A stretch of DNA of 20,000 nt from an uncultured virus (IMG/VR IMGVR_UViG_3300033998_000455) (IMGVR_UViG_3300033998_000455); one strand, 5' to 3'; positions 6,678-20,000 are shown, numbered from the stretch's first letter. The notes: generated by a model not told the origin, from the sequence alone. Numbers and translations are program-made.

Positions 6678-7057
6678 TTCAGCTCACCTACTTCCTTAAG
6701 GGCAGCTGCATAGTGTTTAGGGTCCAGTGCCGAGAGGTTATTGGCTCCATACTTTGTGATGATGGCTTTCACCGCCTCTCTGTGTCCGTCTCTGCTTTTA
6801 TCCGCCATAGCTGCTCTGACTTCCTCAAGGGTTGGCTGTTTTTCTTCTGGCTCTTCAACCGGTGCTTCACCAACTTCAGGCTCTTTGGTCTCAGGTTCTT
6901 CCACCTTTGCCTTGGCCTTTGATTTCTTATTAGTTGGTTCTTCGTTGGCTTCATTTGCTACTTCATTTGATTCCATGGCATGTACCAAAGTCTCTATACT
7001 CTCAGCCAGTGACTTAAGATCACTGACAACTTCCAGTGCGAGTTTGATTTTACTCAT
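6674..7057 (-). CDS. Conserved phage replication-module hypothetical protein
   Basis: Acidic/Pro linker plus C-terminal TLEEVRA...VKAIITKYGANNLSALDPKHYAA, typical of the gene preceding DUF2800; overlaps both neighbours. Confidence 0.8.
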   Translation of the reverse strand: MSKIKLALEVVSDLKSLAESIETLVHAMESNEVANEANEEPTNKKSKAKAKVEEPETKEPEVGEAPVEEPEEKQPTLEEVRAAMADKSRDGHREAVKAIITKYGANNLSALDPKHYAAALKEVGELK

Positions 7058-8270
7058 CCTTCGATTCTCCTTTCGTCTTGAAATAGTCTTTAGCCAGTTC
7101 TTTAAGAATTGGAACCAGGTCCTTCATCTCCCAGGGTGTGTTTCTTTCCTCACCGTCCAGCGACATCTTCTCTCTGCCAAAGTGACCGTAGACTGCAAAC
7201 TGTCTGTAGATGGGCCGTCTCAATCCAAAAGACTTGATGATGGTACCGGGTCTCATGTCAATGAGAACTTTGATAATCTCCGTGAGAACCTCATCCGGAA
7301 GTTTTCCGGTACCAAAGGTGTCAACCTTAAACGACACCGGTTTGGCCACACCGATAGCGTAAGAAACCTGCACCTCGCATTCCTTAGCAAGACCTGCTGC
7401 GACAATGTTCTTTGCGATGTATCTGGCTAGATAAGCTCCTGAACGGTCAACCTTGGTCGGATCTTTTCCAGAGAAAGCGCCACCGCCATGACGTCCCTTG
7501 CTCCCGTAGGTATCAACGATGATTTTTCTGCCAGTTAAACCTGAGTCTGCAGCAGGACCACCAAGAACGAATCTTCCAGTAGGATTGATCATCACTTTAG
7601 TCCTTTCAGTAAGAAGCTCATGTGGGATGACTTTAAGGATGATATGCTTCGTCACATCTTCCCTCAGCTTCTTGATGTCCACACCTTCAGCATGTTGGGT
7701 AGAGACTACAATCGCTTCAATGGATAGAGGTTTATGGTCTTTCCCATATCCCAGCGATACTTGGGCTTTGCCATCTGGTTTAAGGTATGGAAGTAGTCCT
7801 GACTTTCTCGCTTCTGCTAGTCTCATGCAGAGCCTATGTGAGAGGACTAATGGCAGAGGCATAAACTCTGGTGTTTCATCGGTTGCGTAACCAAACATCA
7901 TACCCTGGTCCCCGGCGCCGATTTCTTTGTTTACAACACCCATGGCAATATCAGGTGATTGCTTGCTTATGGCTATAAGCATTCTATAGAACTCACCATC
8001 CGTGGATAGCTCGTCTGCTCGATAGCCGATATCATAAATCACATTCTTGATCACTCTTTTGTAGTCGATTCTCTTTTCAGTGCTGGTTTCTCCAAACACA
8101 TGGATGAGTCCATCTGCTGCAGTGACTTCAATTGCTGTTCTTGCTTCTGGATCCTCCGATATAATGGAATCCATAATCGCGTCAGCAATCTGATCGCAAA
8201 GTTTATCAGGGTGGCCCTCCGTTACTGATTCAGAGGTAAAAACATAAGCTGGTTTCTGATTATCTTTCAT
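7050..8270 (-). CDS. metK: S-adenosylmethionine synthetase (methionine adenosyltransferase)
   Basis: FTSESVTEGHPDK, GAGDQG, PDGKAQV, GLTGRKIIVDTYG, HGGGAFSGKDPTKVDRS and YGHFGR motifs are all present. Confidence 0.97.
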   Translation of the reverse strand: MKDNQKPAYVFTSESVTEGHPDKLCDQIADAIMDSIISEDPEARTAIEVTAADGLIHVFGETSTEKRIDYKRVIKNVIYDIGYRADELSTDGEFYRMLIAISKQSPDIAMGVVNKEIGAGDQGMMFGYATDETPEFMPLPLVLSHRLCMRLAEARKSGLLPYLKPDGKAQVSLGYGKDHKPLSIEAIVVSTQHAEGVDIKKLREDVTKHIILKVIPHELLTERTKVMINPTGRFVLGGPAADSGLTGRKIIVDTYGSKGRHGGGAFSGKDPTKVDRSGAYLARYIAKNIVAAGLAKECEVQVSYAIGVAKPVSFKVDTFGTGKLPDEVLTEIIKVLIDMRPGTIIKSFGLRRPIYRQFAVYGHFGREKMSLDGEERNTPWEMKDLVPILKELAKDYFKTKGESKDE

Positions 8271-10309: not shown

Positions 10310-11137
10310 TTAGAACAGTCGAAACTGACTATTTTCTTCTTCAAGGGACTTCGTATCTCTTATAAAGCCAAACTTTCTCAGCTTCACATATGCGGCTGAT
10401 TTAGATACCCCATAGGCATCGACTATGACTTTCGTCAATTTTTCTTTAGCGAAGAAGCGCTCTTTGAGTCCCGCATCTTCAATTACATACCCTTCGGTTA
10501 TTCCATTGGCTTTTAAAGTCTCAAGTACTAACGGTACGAATGTCGCCTTTGGCATTGCAATGGCAGATGCAAAATAATCAGCCTGGTGCTCCCGCCATTC
10601 TTCAGGTGTTCGATAACCTTTCCACGTTCGGCCAAAACTCTCAATGTCAGACCGCCTACAACATGTCACAGGTTTTATGGGTTCTGTATCACTACTAAAA
10701 AGAGAGAGCTGTTCTGCCGGTTCTGAATAAACCATTGGGTGCAACCATAGATGTCCACCTTCGTGTAAACCGGTAAACAGCTCCAATCCTTCTCGACCTT
10801 CCTCTGTTACATAATGGTCTAAAACAACTGAGTTCTTTTCAAGGGTCAGGTGCCTTGTACAAAGATTCTCCTGATCGAAGATTTTCAGTCTTTCTTCATT
10901 AAAGGCCGTCACCCCGAAGATTTGACCTTCATCCTCGCCATAATAGATGTGCTGATACTCAAGATTTGCACCTAGATATGATTCGAGAAAATGTTCGTAT
11001 TTAATTTTTCTTGGTTCTTTTAGGAGTGCCGATTTATAATCCTTCAGCAGCATCTCCGCCAGTTCATCAAGCTCCACGTCCTTGATCACAGGTGTGTTGC
11101 TCTTCTTGTCTATTTTATTCCATCGGAATTCAATCAA
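10310..11137 (-). CDS. ImmA/IrrE family zinc metallopeptidase (anti-repressor)
   Basis: FTGLHEGGHLWLH (HExxH) and EHQADYFASAIAMP; downstream of an XRE gene; TTG start. Confidence 0.9.
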   Translation of the reverse strand: MIEFRWNKIDKKSNTPVIKDVELDELAEMLLKDYKSALLKEPRKIKYEHFLESYLGANLEYQHIYYGEDEGQIFGVTAFNEERLKIFDQENLCTRHLTLEKNSVVLDHYVTEEGREGLELFTGLHEGGHLWLHPMVYSEPAEQLSLFSSDTEPIKPVTCCRRSDIESFGRTWKGYRTPEEWREHQADYFASAIAMPKATFVPLVLETLKANGITEGYVIEDAGLKERFFAKEKLTKVIVDAYGVSKSAAYVKLRKFGFIRDTKSLEEENSQFRLF

Positions 11138-11412
11138 AACTGATCACCACTCTTTCGCATTCTTGTCGGGATAAAGCAACCGCGCCTAATACGGGCTTTA
11201 TTAACAACAAATGTTTGTATTCGGTATTACCTCTTTGCTTCAAAATATGTCTTTAAAATTCTCTAATAAATAATTTGGTTATATAATCTAACATGAAATA
11301 AGTGGTTTTAAATTATTTTAAAATATTTTTCAATGGTTTTATTTTTTTCTCTACTAGGCTCTTTAAGTTTTTAATTTTGGATTATCGTTTTGAGGGCATA
11401 TTCACATTTTAT

Positions 11413-11605
11413 ATAATTGATCTTCTTTTTTTAGTAGCTCTTATTTTTAAGTATTCTTTGTTTTGAGTGATTTTCATTTTAATTGATTTTCATTTAATCG
11501 ATTTTTATATAGTTGATTTTCTCACTTTAATTTGACTTATCATTTTTTAAGTTGGCTTTTCACTTTTTAAATTAGCTTTCATTTCTAATCGATCTTCTCT
11601 TAAAT
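11413..11605. repeat. Degenerate AT-rich tandem repeat, about 11 units of 15-20 bp
   Basis: Units such as AATTGATTTTCATTT, AGTGATTTTCATTTT, AATCGATTTTTATAT, AGTTGATTTTCTCACTTT, AAGTTGGCTTTTCACTTTTT and AAATTAGCTTTCATTTCT. Confidence 0.6.
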
Positions 11606-11641
11606 TATCCATTGCCCATTATAAAATATGTTTTACTCTTT

Positions 11642-12049
11642 TCATTCGCTAGTATTATTTTTCTTTTCCATATCTCTTATAAACTGTTTCCAATCATCTT
11701 CACTTATCTTTCCTGCGTTAGATTTCCTTAAGGCGAGTCTCGCCATATCCCCTATTTCACCATACATCATGATATCTTCAATATCCGATGGCACCTCACC
11801 GCGATCCCTGGCTGCAAGGTCATACATCATTGCTTTTTCTTCATCATCGAGATCAAATAGTTCTGCAAACAGTTCCATCTTGTCCTTATCAAAGGGCTTC
11901 CTTCTGTTATTTTCAACATCGCTTAGAAATGAAAGAGATATTCCGAGCATTTTAGAAACTTCTTTTAGTGTTAGTTCATCTGGATGTTCTTGTCTCTTCT
12001 TCTTAATGAAATCTCCAAACCTAATATACTTTTCTCTCACGATTTGCAC
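11642..12049 (-). CDS. XRE family transcriptional repressor (ImmR-like)
   Basis: FGDFIKKKR...LTLKEVSKMLGISLSFLSDVENNRRKP HTH; upstream of the immA-like gene; RBS AAGGAGG. Confidence 0.9.
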   Translation of the reverse strand: MQIVREKYIRFGDFIKKKRQEHPDELTLKEVSKMLGISLSFLSDVENNRRKPFDKDKMELFAELFDLDDEEKAMMYDLAARDRGEVPSDIEDIMMYGEIGDMARLALRKSNAGKISEDDWKQFIRDMEKKNNTSE

Positions 12050-12106
12050 CTCCTTTCATTCTGAGGTGAACTGTTGAAAATAATATTCTCTCGTTCATCT
12101 TTTATC

Positions 12107-12188
12107 ATTTACTCATATTTCACCTTATAGCGTAATTCTACTACAAAAAAATGTTGTGGTCAATACCCTATTTCACAAATTTGCGTAA
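12107..12188 (-). promoter_or_regulatory. Promoter of the XRE gene (TTGACC-17-TAGAAT) flanked by two operator boxes
   Basis: -35 at 12158-12163, -10 at 12135-12140; ATTTCAC-N6-GCGTAA boxes at 12117-12135 and 12170-12188. Confidence 0.7.
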
Positions 12189-12234
12189 AAATTTTATTTC
12201 AGAATATGATCTCTTACCAGACAGTTAAAACCTA

Positions 12235-12567
12235 CTATTTGAGCAGTTTGAGAAGATCCTCTAAAGGCTCATACTCTTTGTCGTTAAAGACGTACTTCTG
12301 TACTTCACCATTAATAGTAGCTGTGATCAACCCCATCACTTGGCCTGGATTCTTCTTAAAGGTCATGGGCAGCTCACCAAAGAACTCTGACCCAAAGGAT
12401 GATTCAATAAAGTCCAGTTCATTGAGATGAATCGTTCTGATAAAGTTCAAAATGTTAAACTTGATCTGTTCTTCGAGACTCAAATCTCCAGCTTTCAGCA
12501 TTTTCTTTACTTCTACTTCTGAATACTTCAATTGGCCATCCCCTTTCAGTTCACTTCCTATACTCAT
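12235..12567 (-). CDS. Hypothetical protein (true start may be TTG at 12531)
   Basis: Open frame; the RBS-like AAGGGG precedes the in-frame TTG at 12531. Confidence 0.7.
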   Translation of the reverse strand: MSIGSELKGDGQLKYSEVEVKKMLKAGDLSLEEQIKFNILNFIRTIHLNELDFIESSFGSEFFGELPMTFKKNPGQVMGLITATINGEVQKYVFNDKEYEPLEDLLKLLK

Positions 12568-12623
12568 CGTCAGTCACTTTGTAATATTCGTGCTTAATCT
12601 TGTCCCACTCAGTTTTCTTGTAA

Positions 12624-13259
12624 CTATCTATTCTTAAACTCTGCCATTTCATTTGGTGTGAATCCGTTGTTCTCAGGGACTCTAGTATTATTTGCAAGTT
12701 CTCTGATGAGTCCCATGAGCTCATTTACATCCTTTTCATTTTTTATTTTAAGTTCCCTGTTTTCGAATAGATATCCTATATTCGCGAGGCTATCAGCAGA
12801 CTTGCAGTAGCGCTGAATTTCTAATGCTAGTTCATCTGCCCTAGATTTTCGCCAGAATCTTTTCCTGAAGAATCGTCTCACCGCTTCAAACTGCTCATTT
12901 ACCTCAAAATACTCAAGGTGCGCATACTTCAATAGCTCTTCTTTTTCAGGAATATAGTATGGTTTCCCTGCTTTCTGTCTCATAACCTCATCAAAATTCT
13001 CAAAAGCCATTATGAGGGCACTAACAAAATATTCATCTTTGATTCCGATATATGTCTCAATGTTTCTAGTTCTTTCATCTTCTTCTATTAATCTCAAGTC
13101 ATCAAGACTGATTTGATAATCGTTTTGTTTGTTGATGATCTCTATAACCTTTTCTCTATGGATAACACCATAGAGATTGACCATAGCTTGGATGTAGGTG
13201 TAGATTTCATTGTAAACTTCTGGATCCATTCCCGGAGCAGTTGTCTTTTTATTTACCAT
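12624..13259 (-). CDS. Hypothetical protein resembling the helical body of SEC-C-domain proteins
   Basis: AMVNLYGVI, KPYYIPEKEELLKY and NNTRVPENNGFTPNE resemble Firmicutes SEC-C motif proteins, but the CPCGS tail is absent. Confidence 0.65.
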   Translation of the reverse strand: MVNKKTTAPGMDPEVYNEIYTYIQAMVNLYGVIHREKVIEIINKQNDYQISLDDLRLIEEDERTRNIETYIGIKDEYFVSALIMAFENFDEVMRQKAGKPYYIPEKEELLKYAHLEYFEVNEQFEAVRRFFRKRFWRKSRADELALEIQRYCKSADSLANIGYLFENRELKIKNEKDVNELMGLIRELANNTRVPENNGFTPNEMAEFKNR

Positions 13260-13308
13260 TGTAACATCACCCCCATTTTATAACAGGGTTAACAGGCGTA
13301 CAATTCGC

Positions 13309-14433
13309 TTAGAACTCATCACTTACGAGATACTTTGTATATTTCATCCAATGCTTGATGTTGTTTAAAGCTTCATCAACACCCTCAATATCTAACCAAA
13401 GCACATTATCCTTATCAAGAATCTGCATTCTATGTTTTCTTCCATTAAGCTTTACTCTGCCAATTTGCATATTGTCAACCTGGAAATTTATAGTTCTATC
13501 GCTCATTACATTATAGCTTAACTTCTCACGCACCCCTAAATCCTCAAGTTTCTCTTCGAGGGTATTAATAAATAATTTTTCATTGTCATTTAACTTAGAT
13601 AGTTTATCTAGTTGATCGGCCTGACGTTGCAACTCGAAGTTTCCTCTTATTTTTAGGCACTTTTTCATAACCTCAAATGTTGATTCACAATCTGATAATG
13701 CTCTATGCCCGGTGTTTTCAATTCCAAAATGCTTTTTAATTGTATCTAGCTTTCTATTCGGCGTTTCTTTAGATCCTACGGATTGCTTAACTAGATCAAG
13801 TACATCGAACACTTCCACTCTATCGATTTTCTTTTTGCTTCGAGCAAATGCAACACCGAGAAATTTCAAATCAAATTCAACGTTATACCCTGCTATAATC
13901 TTACCGTTGATTCTATCATATACTTCATCAATAACCTCGTATATTCTTGGTTTGTCTACAACCATTTCTTTCGTTATTCCATTAACTCTTGATGCTGCAT
14001 CAGGAATCAAAGAGTCAGGATTTATTAGTTGATTGTAGCTATCGATTTTTTCACTATTTTTGTAATGAACTATTCCGATTTCAAGTATGCGATCATAGTT
14101 TTCATCGAAGCCTGTTGTTTCAATGTCAAGCATCACAAACTCCTCAGGCATCCTATCTAACTCATACATCTTCCTAATCTGTGAGATTCCACTAGAATAA
14201 ACCTTTTGATAATAACTAGGAGTCTTAGGTGAAATCACTTTAGAATCATCATGTTTTAATGCCTTTGAGGACTTCTGATTGCCTTTTGATTTCAAGTAAC
14301 TCTTAACAAATAGGAAGGTTATACCTCCAAAAATTAGGGTGAAAATAAAATCGCCAACACTATGTATATCAGTTAATGATACTAAAGTAAACAGTCCAAA
14401 GAACGCTATGCCAATAATTTTTAAAATTCTCAT
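13309..14433 (-). CDS. DEDDh (DnaQ-like) 3'-5' exonuclease with an N-terminal membrane anchor
   Basis: ExoI LDIETTG, ExoII GYNVEFDL, ExoIII HRALSDC; two hydrophobic segments in the first ~45 aa. Confidence 0.85.
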   Translation of the reverse strand: MRILKIIGIAFFGLFTLVSLTDIHSVGDFIFTLIFGGITFLFVKSYLKSKGNQKSSKALKHDDSKVISPKTPSYYQKVYSSGISQIRKMYELDRMPEEFVMLDIETTGFDENYDRILEIGIVHYKNSEKIDSYNQLINPDSLIPDAASRVNGITKEMVVDKPRIYEVIDEVYDRINGKIIAGYNVEFDLKFLGVAFARSKKKIDRVEVFDVLDLVKQSVGSKETPNRKLDTIKKHFGIENTGHRALSDCESTFEVMKKCLKIRGNFELQRQADQLDKLSKLNDNEKLFINTLEEKLEDLGVREKLSYNVMSDRTINFQVDNMQIGRVKLNGRKHRMQILDKDNVLWLDIEGVDEALNNIKHWMKYTKYLVSDEF

Positions 14434-14486
14434 TTAATCGCCTCCTCAAATCATAACGTAGTTAACTGCATCTAGAATGTATGTTG

Positions 14487-14793
14487 AATAATCAGGCAAG
14501 CTAAAGTTCAATTCTTTACATTAACCTTTTGGGGGATACGGATCATTCCCATGTGAATCTTTGCTTTGAATCTTACCATCTTTACCATGAATAACTAACT
14601 CCGTGCCTTGATTTTTGCTGATATCTCTTGCAATTCTTTCCGCTTCGGCTTTGGTATCAGTATGGTGACTAGCTTTCTGGCCACCACCCCTTTTAACATT
14701 CCAACCGCCATCTTGATTTGGTACTACATGATGTGTGTCTTGTTTTGCCATTTAAGACCTCCTAAAATTGCTATATGTGCTTGCCTGATTATT
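14487..14793. repeat. 15-bp perfect inverted repeats enclosing the DUF2188 gene
   Basis: AATAATCAGGCAAGC (14487-14501) and GCTTGCCTGATTATT (14779-14793). Confidence 0.85.
14521..14751 (-). CDS. DUF2188 domain protein
   Basis: HHVVPNQDGGWNVKRGG...ELVIHGKDGKIQSKDSHGNDP is the characteristic pattern; RBS AGGAGG. Confidence 0.9.
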   Translation of the reverse strand: MAKQDTHHVVPNQDGGWNVKRGGGQKASHHTDTKAEAERIARDISKNQGTELVIHGKDGKIQSKDSHGNDPYPPKG

Positions 14794-14811
14794 ATCGTCT
14801 CATAAAATTGA

Positions 14812-14840
14812 CTACTCATCTTCGCCTCTATGCTCCACAT
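14812..14840 (-). repeat. 29-bp direct repeat copy (27/29) of the 3' end of the gene at 18067-18696
   Basis: CTACTCATCTTCGCCTCTATGCTCCACAT versus CTACTCATCTTCTCCTCGATGCTCCACAT (18067-18095); both read VEHRGEDE* on the minus strand. Confidence 0.9.
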
Positions 14841-14924
14841 CTAGTAAAACCAAGGAAACAGTCCTTCTGGTTTGTATCCTTATGCTTTTTAAAATATGTC
14901 AGGTGCTCATTGAAAATTGCATCA

Positions 14925-16637
14925 TCACCTTTTGAAAAATTGGCTGACATCCTCTCCATCATACACATAATTTCTGGCATTGCGCAAAGCTTTATTAGAC
15001 ACAAGAGACCCGTCCACAAGGGAGTATTTTCTTATTCTGTTGTTATATATAAAAGTAACATCTTGATTAGTCAGGAAAACATAGCGCAATCGTCTATTTA
15101 CCAGGCTTTGATTTGGAATGCTTTCAAGTTCATTAACAAAGATCCAGTGATTACTAACATTTCGAAAAAGAAAGACTCCTTGATTACTACCGTGAATTAT
15201 AGCAAACAAATATTTACCCGACTGATCGAAAAATGCCTTACTTACATGGGATGAAAACACTACTTCATAATCAACTACAGTACTTTCCTCGTTTACTATT
15301 AAAAATGAAAAGTTTAGTGTCTTTACAGACCATCTACCGTCAGAAGAAGTGCACAGCTTTTTTTCAATAGGCAATCTTTTTTCTGTTCCAGACAATGTCT
15401 TATCTTTTAGATAAGTCACTGCAATATCATCCGTACGAAAAATAGACACAGCCGAGCGAGCAATTCCAAGTTTCGCAATTAACTTTTCAAGATTATCCAG
15501 ATTATGTAGTCCGTGACATGCGAAATACCAGCGGACATCTTTGATATTAGGAATCCTTGATACGATTTCGGAAAAATAGTCCCAATCCACAGGCGAAAGA
15601 GAGTGACCGATTGTAACGATATCTTCTATTTTATTTAAACCTGCGAAAAATGCATCTTGATCATAGATAATATCTTTGCTATTCTTTGTCAATGCTTCAT
15701 CGCCTTCACTGATTAGTCGAATTACACTATCCTGAGCAACATCAATCGTTGAAAGTTTAAATGGATCTTTTATCCACTTTAAAGAATTGCCATCAAAATC
15801 ATATGAGTATGTATCTTCCCGAGGCATGTGCCCTAATATCAATCTTTCCTTTGGAAAATACTTCTTCTTTCGTCGACAGCCATGAATATAACAAATGTTA
15901 TCTTCGTGAAATCCGTAAAGTGTCTCAATAAACTCTGTATAATTAAAACAAAGAACCTGTCCATTTTTCCTCAATATATCTTGTAGAGGCCGGTCATCAG
16001 TTCCTATTGAAAGTGATTCGACCCACATACGAAAGCGTCGTGGCAATTCATTTACAACTGTCATAATTGGATTTGCTGCTGCTTCAGTCGCTTGGAAGAA
16101 TTCAGATGCACCAGCATCTTCATCATATGCACCTAATATATCTAGCCAATTGTCAACAATCACACCATTGCTCATGGCATTTGTATTAAAATGTGCGAGA
16201 GCTTCTTCAAAATCTGCCCAAATATCCTCAAAGGTTATAAAATTCTCAAGGGCGTGGAGAAGTGCACTGTTTTTTCCCAAAGTATCCCTAAACGCATAAT
16301 AACTCGACCGTACCCCATGCATTAAATCAAATCCATTTCCAATTACATAAAGAACATGGTCGTTAGAAAAATGAATATCGTCCTTTGCGACAACCCTCCA
16401 CTCATTCAATCGATGATTAAATGTTTTTTTATCTTCTGACTTTTTTTGCTGCCATTTTTCATTTTCTATTCGCTCTATTTCTTTTTCTCGCTGTTCCTGT
16501 GTAGCCTTGCGACACAATGGACAGTGTTTAGGATTTGCATAGCCTCGTTGCTCAAAAAGTTCTCTCTCATAATTTCTAAACAAAAATGCCTTACCGCACA
16601 TTTCACAAGATAGTTCTTGGGTGTTATAAATTAGCAT
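14925..16637 (-). CDS. abiH: AbiH family abortive-infection protein with an N-terminal zinc ribbon
   Basis: LYVIGNGFDLMHG, FNYT, YIHG, LILGH and IGHSLSPVDWDYF are AbiH/SIR2-like motifs. The N-terminus has CEMC...PKHCPLCR. The likely start is ATG 16637 after RBS GAGGAGG (the ORF track starts at 16658). Confidence 0.85.
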   Translation of the reverse strand: MLIYNTQELSCEMCGKAFLFRNYERELFEQRGYANPKHCPLCRKATQEQREKEIERIENEKWQQKKSEDKKTFNHRLNEWRVVAKDDIHFSNDHVLYVIGNGFDLMHGVRSSYYAFRDTLGKNSALLHALENFITFEDIWADFEEALAHFNTNAMSNGVIVDNWLDILGAYDEDAGASEFFQATEAAANPIMTVVNELPRRFRMWVESLSIGTDDRPLQDILRKNGQVLCFNYTEFIETLYGFHEDNICYIHGCRRKKKYFPKERLILGHMPREDTYSYDFDGNSLKWIKDPFKLSTIDVAQDSVIRLISEGDEALTKNSKDIIYDQDAFFAGLNKIEDIVTIGHSLSPVDWDYFSEIVSRIPNIKDVRWYFACHGLHNLDNLEKLIAKLGIARSAVSIFRTDDIAVTYLKDKTLSGTEKRLPIEKKLCTSSDGRWSVKTLNFSFLIVNEESTVVDYEVVFSSHVSKAFFDQSGKYLFAIIHGSNQGVFLFRNVSNHWIFVNELESIPNQSLVNRRLRYVFLTNQDVTFIYNNRIRKYSLVDGSLVSNKALRNARNYVYDGEDVSQFFKR

Positions 16638-16674
16638 ATGATACCAACACCTCCTCACATCTCATATCATTCAC

Positions 16675-17150
16675 TTAGGATGAACTTCCAGCAAAATTCA
16701 ACCCAATAAAACCTAAGTTAAGTGAATAGCCTGTAAGTCTGTTCGATTTTATTAAACCTTTCACACCTTCAAATATCATAAGGCATCCCTCCTTCATAAG
16801 TCTCGCTGGTTTGTTATGTTCATCCATTGGATCTTGAGGGAAATCCATCCTAAGCAAATGATTATATTTTTCCGTTGATACAATGATATCTTTATCAATA
16901 AAATTACTACCAGCTATTTCTATGGTCTGTAAATCCACCTGGATCTAAGTTGTACATCGCCATATAGCTTTCCTTCAAATTGCCTTTCGAGCTTTCTTCT
17001 TTGCAGTCTTGATAATTTGTAATTCAAATGTTCCAAGACAGTGTGGCCCTTATCATTAAGTAGCTGAATCACTTGATCTTCTGATACTTCGTTAATACAC
17101 AATACCTTTCAGCATCAGATTTTGAAACAAGAGTTGATTCTTTTACTATT
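16675..17150 (-). pseudogene. Probable degraded gene remnant (short overlapping ORFs in different frames)
   Basis: ORFs of 60 and 87 aa overlap and have weak start signals; no recognisable domain. Confidence 0.35.
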
Positions 17151-17159
17151 TTCGCTACA

Positions 17160-18050
17160 TCATTTGCGAAAATTATCCCAAATCTTGAGTTCTTCTGATG
17201 ACTTGAATTCTATCTTTTCTTCGTGCATATCCTTCAGTAACCTAGGCTTATTCATATTACCATCATCATCCAATGTTATAATTGGCCTGTCGGTCAACTT
17301 ATTATAAATATCGTTAGGATCATTTATTATAATTGAATATTGCTCACTGATTTCCTTAAATATTTGCTTTCCACTGTCGGTTGCAATCTGAATATTTGAT
17401 GGATCCTCAACAATTCTAATGAAAACATCATTTCCTCCGATATTTTTATATTCCTTTATCTCAGCGTCTAAAACTACATTGTGACCATAATCTGGATTAT
17501 TAAATATTCCCAAGTCTGCAAATCTATACATTAGCATCAATGGACTTTCATTAAACTTCTCATAGGTTATTCCTTTTGGGAGAACGAAAAAATCATATCT
17601 TGCACTTCGTTTTAAATTTGGAAGGTCTATATATTCGCACCTGTTGACGTCCTTCTCTGAAATGCCAATACCATCAGTTTTTAAATCGCAAGGTATGTAT
17701 AGGCTACACACTGGAAAAGCAAAAGGTTCAAAACTATTAATGCTACCTAAATGTCCGACTCTATCAATCTTAGTTCCATGACTCTTCACATGAACAACTG
17801 GTGAATATAATTGTTTACCATCAATAATTTTATAATAACCATGCCAACTGAGAGAGTTAATTTCTAGCTCGGGTAACTTGTAATGCCTGAAATAATTCCC
17901 TAAAACCACATGACTAAAGTACATCCCTTTTCCAGCATCGAGCATTATGTCAGAATCTCCAAGTCTGCTCTTTTTTGAGAGTTTGAAATTCATTTGAAAT
18001 ATTTTCTTTCCCTCTTTCAGTAATATAATTTTATTCTTCAAGCAAATCAC
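17160..18050 (-). CDS. Hypothetical protein (orphan, AT-rich)
   Basis: 296-aa open frame in AT-rich DNA; no motif recognised. Confidence 0.75.
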   Translation of the reverse strand: MICLKNKIILLKEGKKIFQMNFKLSKKSRLGDSDIMLDAGKGMYFSHVVLGNYFRHYKLPELEINSLSWHGYYKIIDGKQLYSPVVHVKSHGTKIDRVGHLGSINSFEPFAFPVCSLYIPCDLKTDGIGISEKDVNRCEYIDLPNLKRSARYDFFVLPKGITYEKFNESPLMLMYRFADLGIFNNPDYGHNVVLDAEIKEYKNIGGNDVFIRIVEDPSNIQIATDSGKQIFKEISEQYSIIINDPNDIYNKLTDRPIITLDDDGNMNKPRLLKDMHEEKIEFKSSEELKIWDNFRK

Positions 18051-18066
18051 CCACCTTCAACTCAAC

Positions 18067-18696
18067 CTACTCATCTTCTCCTCGATGCTCCACATTCATA
18101 GCATCAACCCAATCTTCCTCAACGTAGACCATCCCGTTCCGACCCTCTACCTTACGATTTGGACCAGCCTTATACATCTTACAATTAAGTGGACCATAAC
18201 AGAAAGTTTCAAATCTATATTTTCTCCGACCTCTCGGATTCCAGTTATCAATAATAATCTCAACAGGCATCCTGGCTCCCCACATACAGCTACTACAGAA
18301 AACCTCATATGTCCTGGCTGCCAGCCTGCGGTGTCCTCTTTCTCTGTAAACTTCCAGCTCCGGCGGCACAAGTTCCCAGGGAGATGATGTGTTCGAGATG
18401 GTAGTGCTTTGGGTGATAAGTTTGAGTTTTGAGACTTTGTAATACTCAGTAGGCTCGGTGTCAGGATCCGGTACTGGAACGCATTCTCCGGAGATCACAT
18501 CGTTTACTTTGAATTGATGTTTGGCATGGGCTGCTTTGCCGATGCCGATAGAGAAAGTAGTGGTAGCGCTGTCCAGTTCTCCCTCCAAGGTAATGGCATA
18601 ACCGAGATATGTATGGGAGGCTTCATCGAAGGACCTCATGAGACGAATGCGAGGTTGAATTGATATGATTCTTCCGGTGAAGATATGTTTGTCCAT
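18067..18696 (-). CDS. Hypothetical protein, beta-rich N-terminus with Cys-rich C-terminus
   Basis: 209 aa, RBS AAGGAGG; CSSCMWG...FCYGPLNC could bind metal; visibly more GC-rich than its neighbours. Confidence 0.8.
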   Translation of the reverse strand: MDKHIFTGRIISIQPRIRLMRSFDEASHTYLGYAITLEGELDSATTTFSIGIGKAAHAKHQFKVNDVISGECVPVPDPDTEPTEYYKVSKLKLITQSTTISNTSSPWELVPPELEVYRERGHRRLAARTYEVFCSSCMWGARMPVEIIIDNWNPRGRRKYRFETFCYGPLNCKMYKAGPNRKVEGRNGMVYVEEDWVDAMNVEHRGEDE

Positions 18697-18713
18697 AACT
18701 AGAAGGCCTCCTT

Positions 18714-20000
18714 TTAATCAAATTTAAGTTCTATATATCTACCATCTTTGTGTAAATATTTCTTCATCGAACCTAACTGATATGTTGCATAACTGTTATC
18801 AAACAAAACTACATTTTTACCACTAAGTCCAATTTTGTTCATTCTAGTGCTTCGATATATAATTCCATCATATCCTTTTTCAATCAAATAATTACTAAAA
18901 AATCTAAAAGGAATGTACGCTTTCAATTCTGGATCTTCCATTTTATCTACAGGTTCAAAAATTGTTTTATCAATTATTGTTAAGAACAGCCTTCCTAACC
19001 TTTCATTAGCAACCTTAAATATTTGATCATTGATTCCTAGATTTCTAATGGCATAAAGAATTTCTTCTTTTGACTTGTCTTCAAAGTCACTTTTGTTCTT
19101 TGATTTTTTTATCATTTCATTCATTTTTAGAACGAATTTATCATCATTCAATAAAGAATTAATACCACTTTCTCTTATTTCTTTTGGCAGCTCATAAAAA
19201 TTTCTTGCGATCTCTGAGGGGTTTTCATCTTCATAGTACAAGTTAATTAACTTAGCATTTTTAATGATTGGTTTAAACTCACAAATTACAACTTCGCTGC
19301 CATTCTCGAGTCGAATCTCTTCAAAACAGGTCTTCTGAGGCAAATTTATTATCTCATCAAATTTATCTTCTCGTTCCCCACAAGCAAGATACATAAAAGC
19401 TACTCCATCCGGATTCCATCGATTTTCTTTTGCATATTCTGTCGGTGTTATCATAAGTTCATAATTCTCAGATAGGTCCCAACTTCTTGCTCTATACATG
19501 ATTCCAATATCTTTAAGACTTTTAACGAATTTATCTGGGTATTTTTCAATTACATTATCATGGAAGTCATTAAACAAATCTCTAAAGCCTTTTTCAGCCC
19601 CGATTACGGATTCTCCTTCAGGCATTGATTTCCACAAGTTTTTAACTAACATTTGTGTTCGTTTCCAATATAAATGATCGTACCAATCATAAAATGAATA
19701 TCCCATTTCAAATAATAATACAGCTAAATATTCTTGTATTTTAGGGACTATGATACTTTTCAATTGATCACTATACTCTTCAAACGCGGATATGTCTTTA
19801 AATATTTCTACAAGCAACTCATCAAAGAACTTTACAATATCATACATCTCTCCAAGCACTCTTGCAAAGAGTCTTCTTACTTCAGGATGTTGAAACGAAC
19901 TCATTATATCAATTACTATATCAAGAGAATTATCTTTAAAGCGATTTTTAATTTTATTGCTTTCAAAGATAAGATCAAAAGAGTAATACGTCTTGTCCAT
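18714..20000 (-). CDS. RES domain protein (5' end may extend beyond the window)
   Basis: MYRAR, ENRWNPDGVAFMYL, CFEEIR and GYDGIIYRS...NVVLF supply the conserved R, E and S residues. Confidence 0.85.
   Translation of the reverse strand: MDKTYYSFDLIFESNKIKNRFKDNSLDIVIDIMSSFQHPEVRRLFARVLGEMYDIVKFFDELLVEIFKDISAFEEYSDQLKSIIVPKIQEYLAVLLFEMGYSFYDWYDHLYWKRTQMLVKNLWKSMPEGESVIGAEKGFRDLFNDFHDNVIEKYPDKFVKSLKDIGIMYRARSWDLSENYELMITPTEYAKENRWNPDGVAFMYLACGEREDKFDEIINLPQKTCFEEIRLENGSEVVICEFKPIIKNAKLINLYYEDENPSEIARNFYELPKEIRESGINSLLNDDKFVLKMNEMIKKSKNKSDFEDKSKEEILYAIRNLGINDQIFKVANERLGRLFLTIIDKTIFEPVDKMEDPELKAYIPFRFFSNYLIEKGYDGIIYRSTRMNKIGLSGKNVVLFDNSYATYQLGSMKKYLHKDGRYIELKFD

Follow-up and report, generated by a model that had tools for sequence, protein, structure and literature searches.

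When the last bases of a gene recur downstream of it with a candidate defence gene in between, do they mark the attachment site of a mobile cassette, or are they the trace of another kind of exchange? We addressed this question in a stretch of 20,000 nucleotides from an uncultured virus (IMG/VR IMGVR_UViG_3300033998_000455), hereafter the window, in which the 3′ end of a conserved gene of 209 amino acids (aa), here named c0, is found a second time beyond a segment of 3.2 kb (14841-18066) that carries an AbiH gene. Integrative elements, such as prophages that integrate at tRNA genes or gene ends and genomic islands, restore the 3′ end of their target gene, and the original prediction had taken the two copies for attL/attR-like scars of such an entry. 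Our analysis suggests that the repeat is probably a recombination scar in a prophage defence hotspot and not an attachment site: two versions of one phage arm appear to have been joined, and AbiH to have stood upstream of a c0 copy that has since been lost.

The two copies of the repeat, at 18067-18095 and 14812-14840, lie on the minus strand, as do all genes of the window, and are alike at 27 of 29 bases. Both mismatches (CGA/AGA and GGA/GGC) are synonymous, and VEHRGEDE followed by a stop codon is encoded by either copy; coordinates and translations were confirmed as first described. A scan of the window allowing up to three mismatches returned these two sites only, and none of 200 dinucleotide shuffles (0/200) yielded two matches. 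Copy 1 forms the last 29 bases of the intact c0 gene (18067-18696, minus strand), is identical to the c0 tail of locus L005 and is followed by a 21-bp motif. Copy 2 joins contiguously a spacer and a DUF2188 gene of the type found in L011. The copies therefore come from two different alleles, as had been proposed. Alignment of window positions 14840-14487 to alleles in which c0 is directly followed by DUF2188 gave identities of 90.9% (L011), 88.7% (L012), 80.5% (L029), 80.0% (L049) and 79.9% (L039). These alignments open at the first of the last 29 bases of c0 and pass through the spacer and DUF2188; that to L075 begins at 14798, at 82% identity. Because the homology opens exactly at 14840, copy 2 is a true remnant of c0 and not a chance match, namely a 3′ stub of 29 bases left by a second c0 allele whose remainder is lost. 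No similarity to c0 was found upstream of 14840.

For comparison, 79 genome loci with c0 were fetched and their open reading frames (ORFs) called and clustered, with Pfam run on 90 of the 148 multi-member clusters. Full-length c0 is present in 75 loci, window included, and the protein is 53-93% identical across the 79. One gene order recurs: polysaccharide genes (UDP-glucose dehydrogenase, epimerase), a variable slot 1, c0, a variable slot 2, lysogeny genes and replication genes, the lysogeny block after slot 2 consisting of DUF2188, a gene of family c7, a helix-turn-helix (HTH) gene and an M78 peptidase gene. Among the relatives, the flanks are thereby conserved while the content around c0 varies: with genes of less than 80 aa and loci with less than 800 bp of flank left out, the first gene downstream of c0 is of 37 types in 50 loci and the first gene upstream of 48 types in 58 loci. 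Empty alleles, in which c0 is directly followed by DUF2188, had been predicted and occur in six of the 75 full-length loci (L011, L012, L029, L039, L049 and L075). In L042, L046, L048 and L052 the start of c7 overlaps the c0 stop or lies at most 3 bp from it, and in L036 it lies a few bases past the stop.

The cargo of these slots includes QatABCD (L005, L010, L069), Thoeris ThsA/ThsB (L029, L042), a GajB-like helicase and a PD-T4-7-like gene (L018), SIR2 (L043), a CBASS 4TM effector (L014), AbiLii (L072), an AbiH homologue (L039) and genes of caspase, HEPN, Mrr and Schlafen type. PADLOC matches at E <= 1e-5 were obtained for 10 of the 37 downstream and 13 of the 48 upstream types, some of them weak and one a DprA scoring as ShosA; these are raw counts without a background rate. 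The epimerase upstream of c0 is 90-95% identical within two subfamilies that cross orders (L075, L029, L036, L042 and L049; L078, L010, L011, L015 and L027). This conservation equals that of c0, so that the polysaccharide genes are probably part of the mobile element and not of its hosts.

The usual left boundary of slot 2 lies just beyond the c0 stop codon. The 21-bp motif GTTGAGTTGAAGGTGGGTGAT (18046-18066, minus strand), with a Shine-Dalgarno sequence inside, follows the stop with at most three mismatches in 8 loci with 6 different first cargo genes, so that cargo commonly begins, on its left, where its first gene starts. A remnant of the c7 start precedes the cargo in L030 and L047 instead. 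The slot-2 cargo that opens at the motif in the window is a gene for a 296-aa protein (17160-18050, minus strand). This gene and the PD-T4-7-like 343-aa gene of L018 are alike in the motif and the first six codons (18017-18050; L018:6557-6590) and fully divergent thereafter; judged from the sequences, the pair is a recombination join just inside the reading frames. A non-coding element precedes the first slot-1 gene in L005 (8444-8690), L006, L008, L009, L010 (7687-7977), L011 (2219-2500) and L069, among others, and the same element stands upstream of a long c0-proximal ORF in L013 and before c7 in L085 (2073-2206). It consists of an array of ~25-bp repeats that resemble iterons or operators, a terminator-like hairpin that has a T run, and a box resembling a promoter, and could be a regulatory region or the end of the mobile element. 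Tandem or decaying second copies of c0 were found in L041, L063, L062, L043, L053 and L061, which indicates that stacking and erosion of c0 do occur elsewhere. A sliding best-match comparison of c0 nucleotides among 24 alleles was discarded for breakpoint placement, the best matches shifting along the gene too noisily.

The distribution of c0 ends bears directly on the attachment-site question. Two features of a site-specific cassette, flanking direct repeats of the 3′ end and an empty single-copy site, were found. There is no recombinase in or next to the element, and no crossover position is common to independent insertions. Scans with Pfam, PADLOC, PHROGs and NCBIfam detected no recombinase in the enclosed segment, in agreement with the first description of it, or elsewhere in the window. 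Among 45 c0 copies with at least 4 kb downstream, a second c0 tail (at most 6 mismatches) occurs in three, namely L041, L062 and the window; it is a whole second c0 in L041 and an internally deleted second copy in L062, and the remaining copies show 9-14 mismatches of 29, equal to background. The starts of 5′-truncated c0 copies fall at residues 77-96 (L080, L081, L082), 178 (L081), ~180-185 (L062, L019) and, in the window, 201, and the stubs measure 29, ~75 and ~91-99 bp or are larger. As for the features of an integron-like platform, there is no integrase, most cargo is without a repeated end site, and no dyad symmetry can be read from the sequence of the 29-mer. These results argue against site-specific entry at attL/attR-like repeats: second tails are few, stubs in relatives begin elsewhere than at the repeat, and the boundary follows the stop codon at the 21-bp motif. 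Alternative cargo alleles exist as anticipated, without the repeat as their boundary, and what holds of the suggested landing pad is a site of highly variable cargo, seemingly of defence type for the most part, not a repeat-based site-specific system.

The segment between the two copies, first regarded as one cassette, comprises at least two modules; in other places the AbiH module lacks the 296-aa gene and, in one contig, the stub. AbiH (14925-16658, minus strand, 577 aa as listed) probably starts at the ATG at 16637 and encodes a treble-clef zinc finger and an AbiH domain (Pfam AbiH 152.9 bits against a cut-off of 30.9; zf_Tbcl 29.5 bits; PADLOC AbiH E 2.7e-21). In all contexts seen it is accompanied by a 34-aa ORF (16675-16779, minus strand), which is kept in L084, L085 and L086, and a 5′ leader of ~75 bp (16791-16868, minus strand) precedes the module here and in L086. 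The leader is 87.8% identical over 74 bp to a stretch of L042 upstream of a 407-aa gene that stands directly before c0. It had been described as a gene remnant, and a remnant of the 407-aa protein was considered and rejected: as the L042 stretch precedes the likely ATG start, the element is a shared leader and not a protein fragment. The 296-aa gene, described as an orphan, has 43 homologue clusters at 40-94% identity and no family match; no relatives of the AbiH and 296-aa proteins turned up in scans of IMG/VR. Between the leader and the 296-aa gene lies a junction segment (16869-17159, minus strand) with a 60-aa ORF (16920-17102), for which neither blastn nor blastx gave a match among the fetched loci.

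The AbiH module has other neighbours in two relatives. L085 carries the leader, the 34-aa ORF and AbiH at 96% identity (over 16662-14919 for the AbiH stretch) and diverges 6 bp past the AbiH stop, after which come the repeat-array/terminator/promoter element and then c7, with neither c0 nor a stub. In L086 the AbiH module comes after a c7 gene. Compared with L085:155-240 and L086:633-703, 71-86 bp are missing from the window between the 34-aa ORF and the AbiH start. A spacer (14841-14924, minus strand), in which homology to L085 stops at 14919, separates the AbiH module from the stub in the window.

Metagenome contigs revealed further forms of the locus. Parts of the region 14400-18800 are contained in 20 public runs, and contigs of four runs from four studies were compared. 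In X4 and X6, from two studies, a single contig per run links 14806 with 18067 across four letters, passing over 3260 bases, at a likeness of at least 90% on both sides; these joined contigs add to the empty alleles of the genomes, and their form is one base, within a T run, apart from a precise deletion between the repeats. X2 also holds c0 with other cargo after it (loose end at 18071); a joint of 12201 to 18066 in X2 was not used, one of its sides being 26 letters long. The junction of AbiH and stub is colinear in contigs of all four runs and in L084. Contigs of other samples diverge at 16664, just upstream of the AbiH ribosome-binding site (X2 contig), and at 16862-16869. The loose end of the X12 contig at 16869 matches the promoter box of the slot-1 element (29 of 30 letters to L009), which makes the AbiH module the first gene set after the upstream-slot promoter in X12. 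At a likeness of at least 90%, c0 and most of the 296-aa gene have no cover in X12, which is not evidence that c0 is absent there.

L084, itself a metagenome contig, runs colinear with the window over 18724-13188, at 95.5% identity, and has both repeat copies. Its identity is 93-100% over ~18150-13150, 81-91% in the 5′ 500 bp of c0 and ~50% upstream of c0, and this fall indicates that c0 and the upstream slot have been exchanged relative to the downstream cargo. Judging by the promoter join in X12, the leader common with the slot-1 gene of L042 and the position of the AbiH homologue of L039 upstream of c0, AbiH was most likely cargo of the slot upstream of the now-lost second c0 and was probably not inserted downstream of the intact c0; the 296-aa gene opens at the motif after c0.

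What is observed here is the stub, alleles that are empty or carry other cargo, breakpoints that vary, and a mosaic pattern of identity; from these we infer the following order of events. A unit A (RES gene, c0, 296-aa gene) would have been joined to a unit B (leader, 34-aa ORF and AbiH, a c0 now reduced to 29 bases, DUF2188). Cargo would turn over by homologous recombination among related phages, with c0 and the lysogeny genes serving as homology arms, and illegitimate joins would survive if located at the boundaries of genes. In G103, G260 and G311, the homologues of the 296-aa gene stand apart from c0 and from all other window genes and gave no indication of what natively follows unit A on its right. 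AbiH, the RES gene, DUF2188/PDC-S16 and the exonuclease next to DUF2188 are predicted to protect the lysogen.

Several points weigh against this reconstruction. By tblastn, c0 is absent from 50,697 phage records, and in IMG/VR it is found in one contig (L004); its placement in the phage draws on prophage synteny. Nothing among the fetched sequences matches the stretch of 84 bp that separates AbiH from the stub, and the protective role of the cargo is predicted from family assignments. The evidence from X12 is one contig with a loose end of 33 letters, and X12 may hold a c0 below 90% likeness. By contig data, the empty forms of X4 and X6 are indistinguishable from excision products. The order of events is also ambiguous in that a one-step recombination between a donor and an empty allele yields the same map. 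In such a step, a donor with c0, the 296-aa gene, AbiH and further sequence beyond it would have met a phage with c0 directly before DUF2188; a homologous crossover in or upstream of c0 and an illegitimate one joining the position 84 bp past AbiH to base -29 of the recipient c0 would give the present arrangement, AbiH being slot-2 cargo of the donor and a full tandem second c0 never having existed. The repeat copies would again represent different alleles, the mosaic identity around c0 shows that exchanges of this kind happen, and the identity of the junction in L084 and in contigs of four runs fits a single old event. However, the AbiH leader is of slot-1 type and directly follows the slot-1 promoter element in X12, the AbiH homologue of L039 stands upstream of c0, and breakpoints at 16862-16869 mark the enclosed segment as a composite in its own right. 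We therefore hold this one-step route to be conceivable but rather unlikely.

The reading of the original prediction, in which the 3′ end of c0 is an attachment site and cassettes that carry a copy of it but no recombinase are integrated and excised in trans, leaving 29-bp repeats behind, has several observations in its favour: the cargo lies between direct repeats alike at 27 of 29 bases, c0 tails flank cargo in L019 and L062 as well, the cargo after c0 is very diverse, and empty alleles occur in six genomes and in contigs of two studies. Yet the segment lacks a recombinase (though one might act in trans), only three of 45 c0 copies have a second tail, the stubs are of unequal length, the left cargo boundary lies after the stop codon and not at -29, the repeat is without dyad symmetry, and the empty form in X4 and X6 is one base off a precise deletion. 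On this balance the attachment site is very improbable. A chance match or assembly artefact as the source of the repeat, in favour of which its short length of 29 bp could be cited, is practically negligible: no shuffle gave two matches, the homology to empty alleles runs on for 353 bp from the repeat, and the arrangement recurs in the independent contig L084 and in runs of different studies. On a further reading, the c0 protein or its DNA (the 3′ end, the 21-bp motif, the upstream promoter and leader) would promote recombination as a dedicated exchange platform, which we consider improbable. If it were true, phages could stack units of c0 plus cargo and exchange them with one another, the stubs and the tandem copies of c0 being the footprints of this traffic, and the platform would be a phage counterpart of the integron without a classical integrase.

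The c0 protein itself is widespread. It has 3061 homologues, of which the best 120 (77-92% identity) come from many orders of Bacillota and from metagenome-assembled genomes labelled Spirochaetales and Pseudothermotoga. It fits no family of Pfam, PADLOC, PHROGs or NCBIfam, and PDB sequences searched with a profile yielded no relative (best E 0.28). An AlphaFold2 model built from 32 sequences had a predicted local distance difference test score of 85, and Foldseek against PDB returned nothing for it at E <= 0.001. In this model, residues 1-100 resemble the OB folds of PriB, SSB and RPA (VIA-align: Z 8.2, root-mean-square deviation 3.0, 84 aligned residues), in a Z range that the tool calls common, and the N-terminal part accordingly resembles a generic OB fold. 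In the C-terminal half, C134, C137, C166 and C172 are invariant or nearly so. No publications on c0 or its hotspot were found via related subjects; having no family name, c0 is not itself searchable. In the IMG/VR contig L004 (391-4409), c0 is a pseudogene, carrying a frameshift and a premature stop but with an unbroken tail, and two large serine recombinases come after it. In L063 (1-4786), two c0 copies with identical tails and at least 70 bp of identical downstream sequence flank an IS200-like Y1 transposase, ComM and DprA. IS200-like genes lie near c0 in six loci (L027, L031, L041, L063, L071 and L080).

The rest of the window, all on the minus strand, follows the order seen in the relatives. 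Slot 1 holds a 428-aa gene with a RES domain (18714-20000; Pfam RES E 8.3e-7), at whose position L084, otherwise colinear with the window, has an unrelated sequence of ~50% identity. Past the stub come a spacer and a 76-aa DUF2188 gene (14487-14811, gene at 14521-14751; Pfam DUF2188 E 1.9e-24; PADLOC candidate PDC-S16 E 5.7e-37). A perfect 15-nt inverted repeat (14779-14793 and 14487-14501) brackets DUF2188, both arms being invariant in 7 loci, and homology between lineages stops just past the 3′ arm; DUF2188 therefore resembles a separate cassette with its own bounds. Beyond DUF2188 comes a third variable slot, which holds a 374-aa exonuclease of DEDDh (RNase_T) type (13309-14433; Pfam RNase_T E 1.5e-34); at its position L011 and L012 have a gene for a non-specific endonuclease (Endonuclease_NS_2) with a lamin-tail domain (LTD), and L039, L049 and L075 have none. 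This exonuclease has an N-terminal extension of ~95 residues, and the match to PADLOC candidate PDC-S48 covers the domain only. The next anchor is a 211-aa gene of the c7 family (12624-13259; 10 members); identity to L084 stops near 13150.

Below 12600 the window carries genes for an HTH protein, an M78 peptidase, sigma factors, S-adenosylmethionine synthetase, a DUF2800 nuclease, an Enc34-type SSB, a family A polymerase and a VapE primase. The full-length S-adenosylmethionine synthetase gene (7050-8270) lies between the sigma-factor and replication genes and is kept in relatives (cluster c26). G002, an IMG/VR record of 30 kb, matches the window at 92% identity between ~12622 and position 2; beyond this stretch come genes for an SNF2 helicase, methylases, small and large terminase, portal, ClpP-type protease, capsid and connector. 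The replication module of the window and these colinear virion genes of G002 place the locus in a phage or prophage, and they identify the window as the left arm of a temperate siphophage, with c0 as a conserved anchor of the accessory arm. In both G002 and the nearest genome, G001, the match to the window is confined to positions below ~12622, because the contigs begin there. Megablast of window positions 11000-20000 against phage records gave a single match of 519 bp, in the HTH region. The GC content of c0 is ~45%, like that of the replication genes, and that of its neighbours ~33%.

These findings make c0, which has a variable slot on either side in prophages from anaerobic Bacillota and from other phyla, an easily recognised marker. 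The slots mix Qat, Thoeris, Gabija-like, SIR2, PD-T4-7 and AbiH genes with uncharacterised families (the 296-aa gene, c31/c32, c59, c60, c108 and the 407-aa gene), and the locus could be mined for new defence genes, as the hotspots of P2 and P4 phages were. The window also provides a worked example of cargo turnover in a hotspot, with homologous arms, joins at ribosome-binding sites and stubs of core genes, and it shows that a direct repeat of a gene 3′ end is insufficient to call an attachment site.

Compared with known systems, the locus shares with elements that integrate at gene ends an intact gene, cargo and a direct repeat of the 3′ end, the two copies being of different allelic origin. 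In contrast to them, neither the segment nor the sequence beside it carries an integrase, the length of the repeat varies, and most cargo alleles are without it. The AbiH domain falls well above the curated cut-off of its family (PF14253), whereas the N-terminal treble-clef zinc finger, a C-terminal extension of ~180 aa and the preceding 34-aa ORF with its conserved leader set the gene apart. DUF2188 proteins are predicted to act in defence and occur with CapH/CapP-like regulators, an HTH protein and a metallopeptidase (bioRxiv 10.1101/2022.04.27.489752). DUF2188 here likewise lies in the same arm as HTH and M78 peptidase genes, but, unlike in those operons, it is a free-standing 76-aa gene within a 15-nt inverted repeat, ~2.5 kb from HTH and M78. 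The closest parallel is provided by the defence hotspots of P2 and P4 phages, in which systems are reported to be swapped whole and recombination to leave remnants of core genes; small intergenic remnants, some of them core-gene-like, are taken there as traces of recombination (PMC13586616). The present hotspot belongs to another phage lineage, a siphophage from anaerobic Bacillota whose replication genes include DUF2800, PolA and VapE; it also differs in having two slots that flank one uncharacterised gene, c0, and in its boundary, a 21-bp ribosome-binding motif; its cargo is known from sequence. It resembles the P2 and P4 hotspots in the variable cargo, here mostly of putative defence type, between core genes of a temperate element, in the rapid swapping of whole systems and in the remnants that such swaps leave behind.

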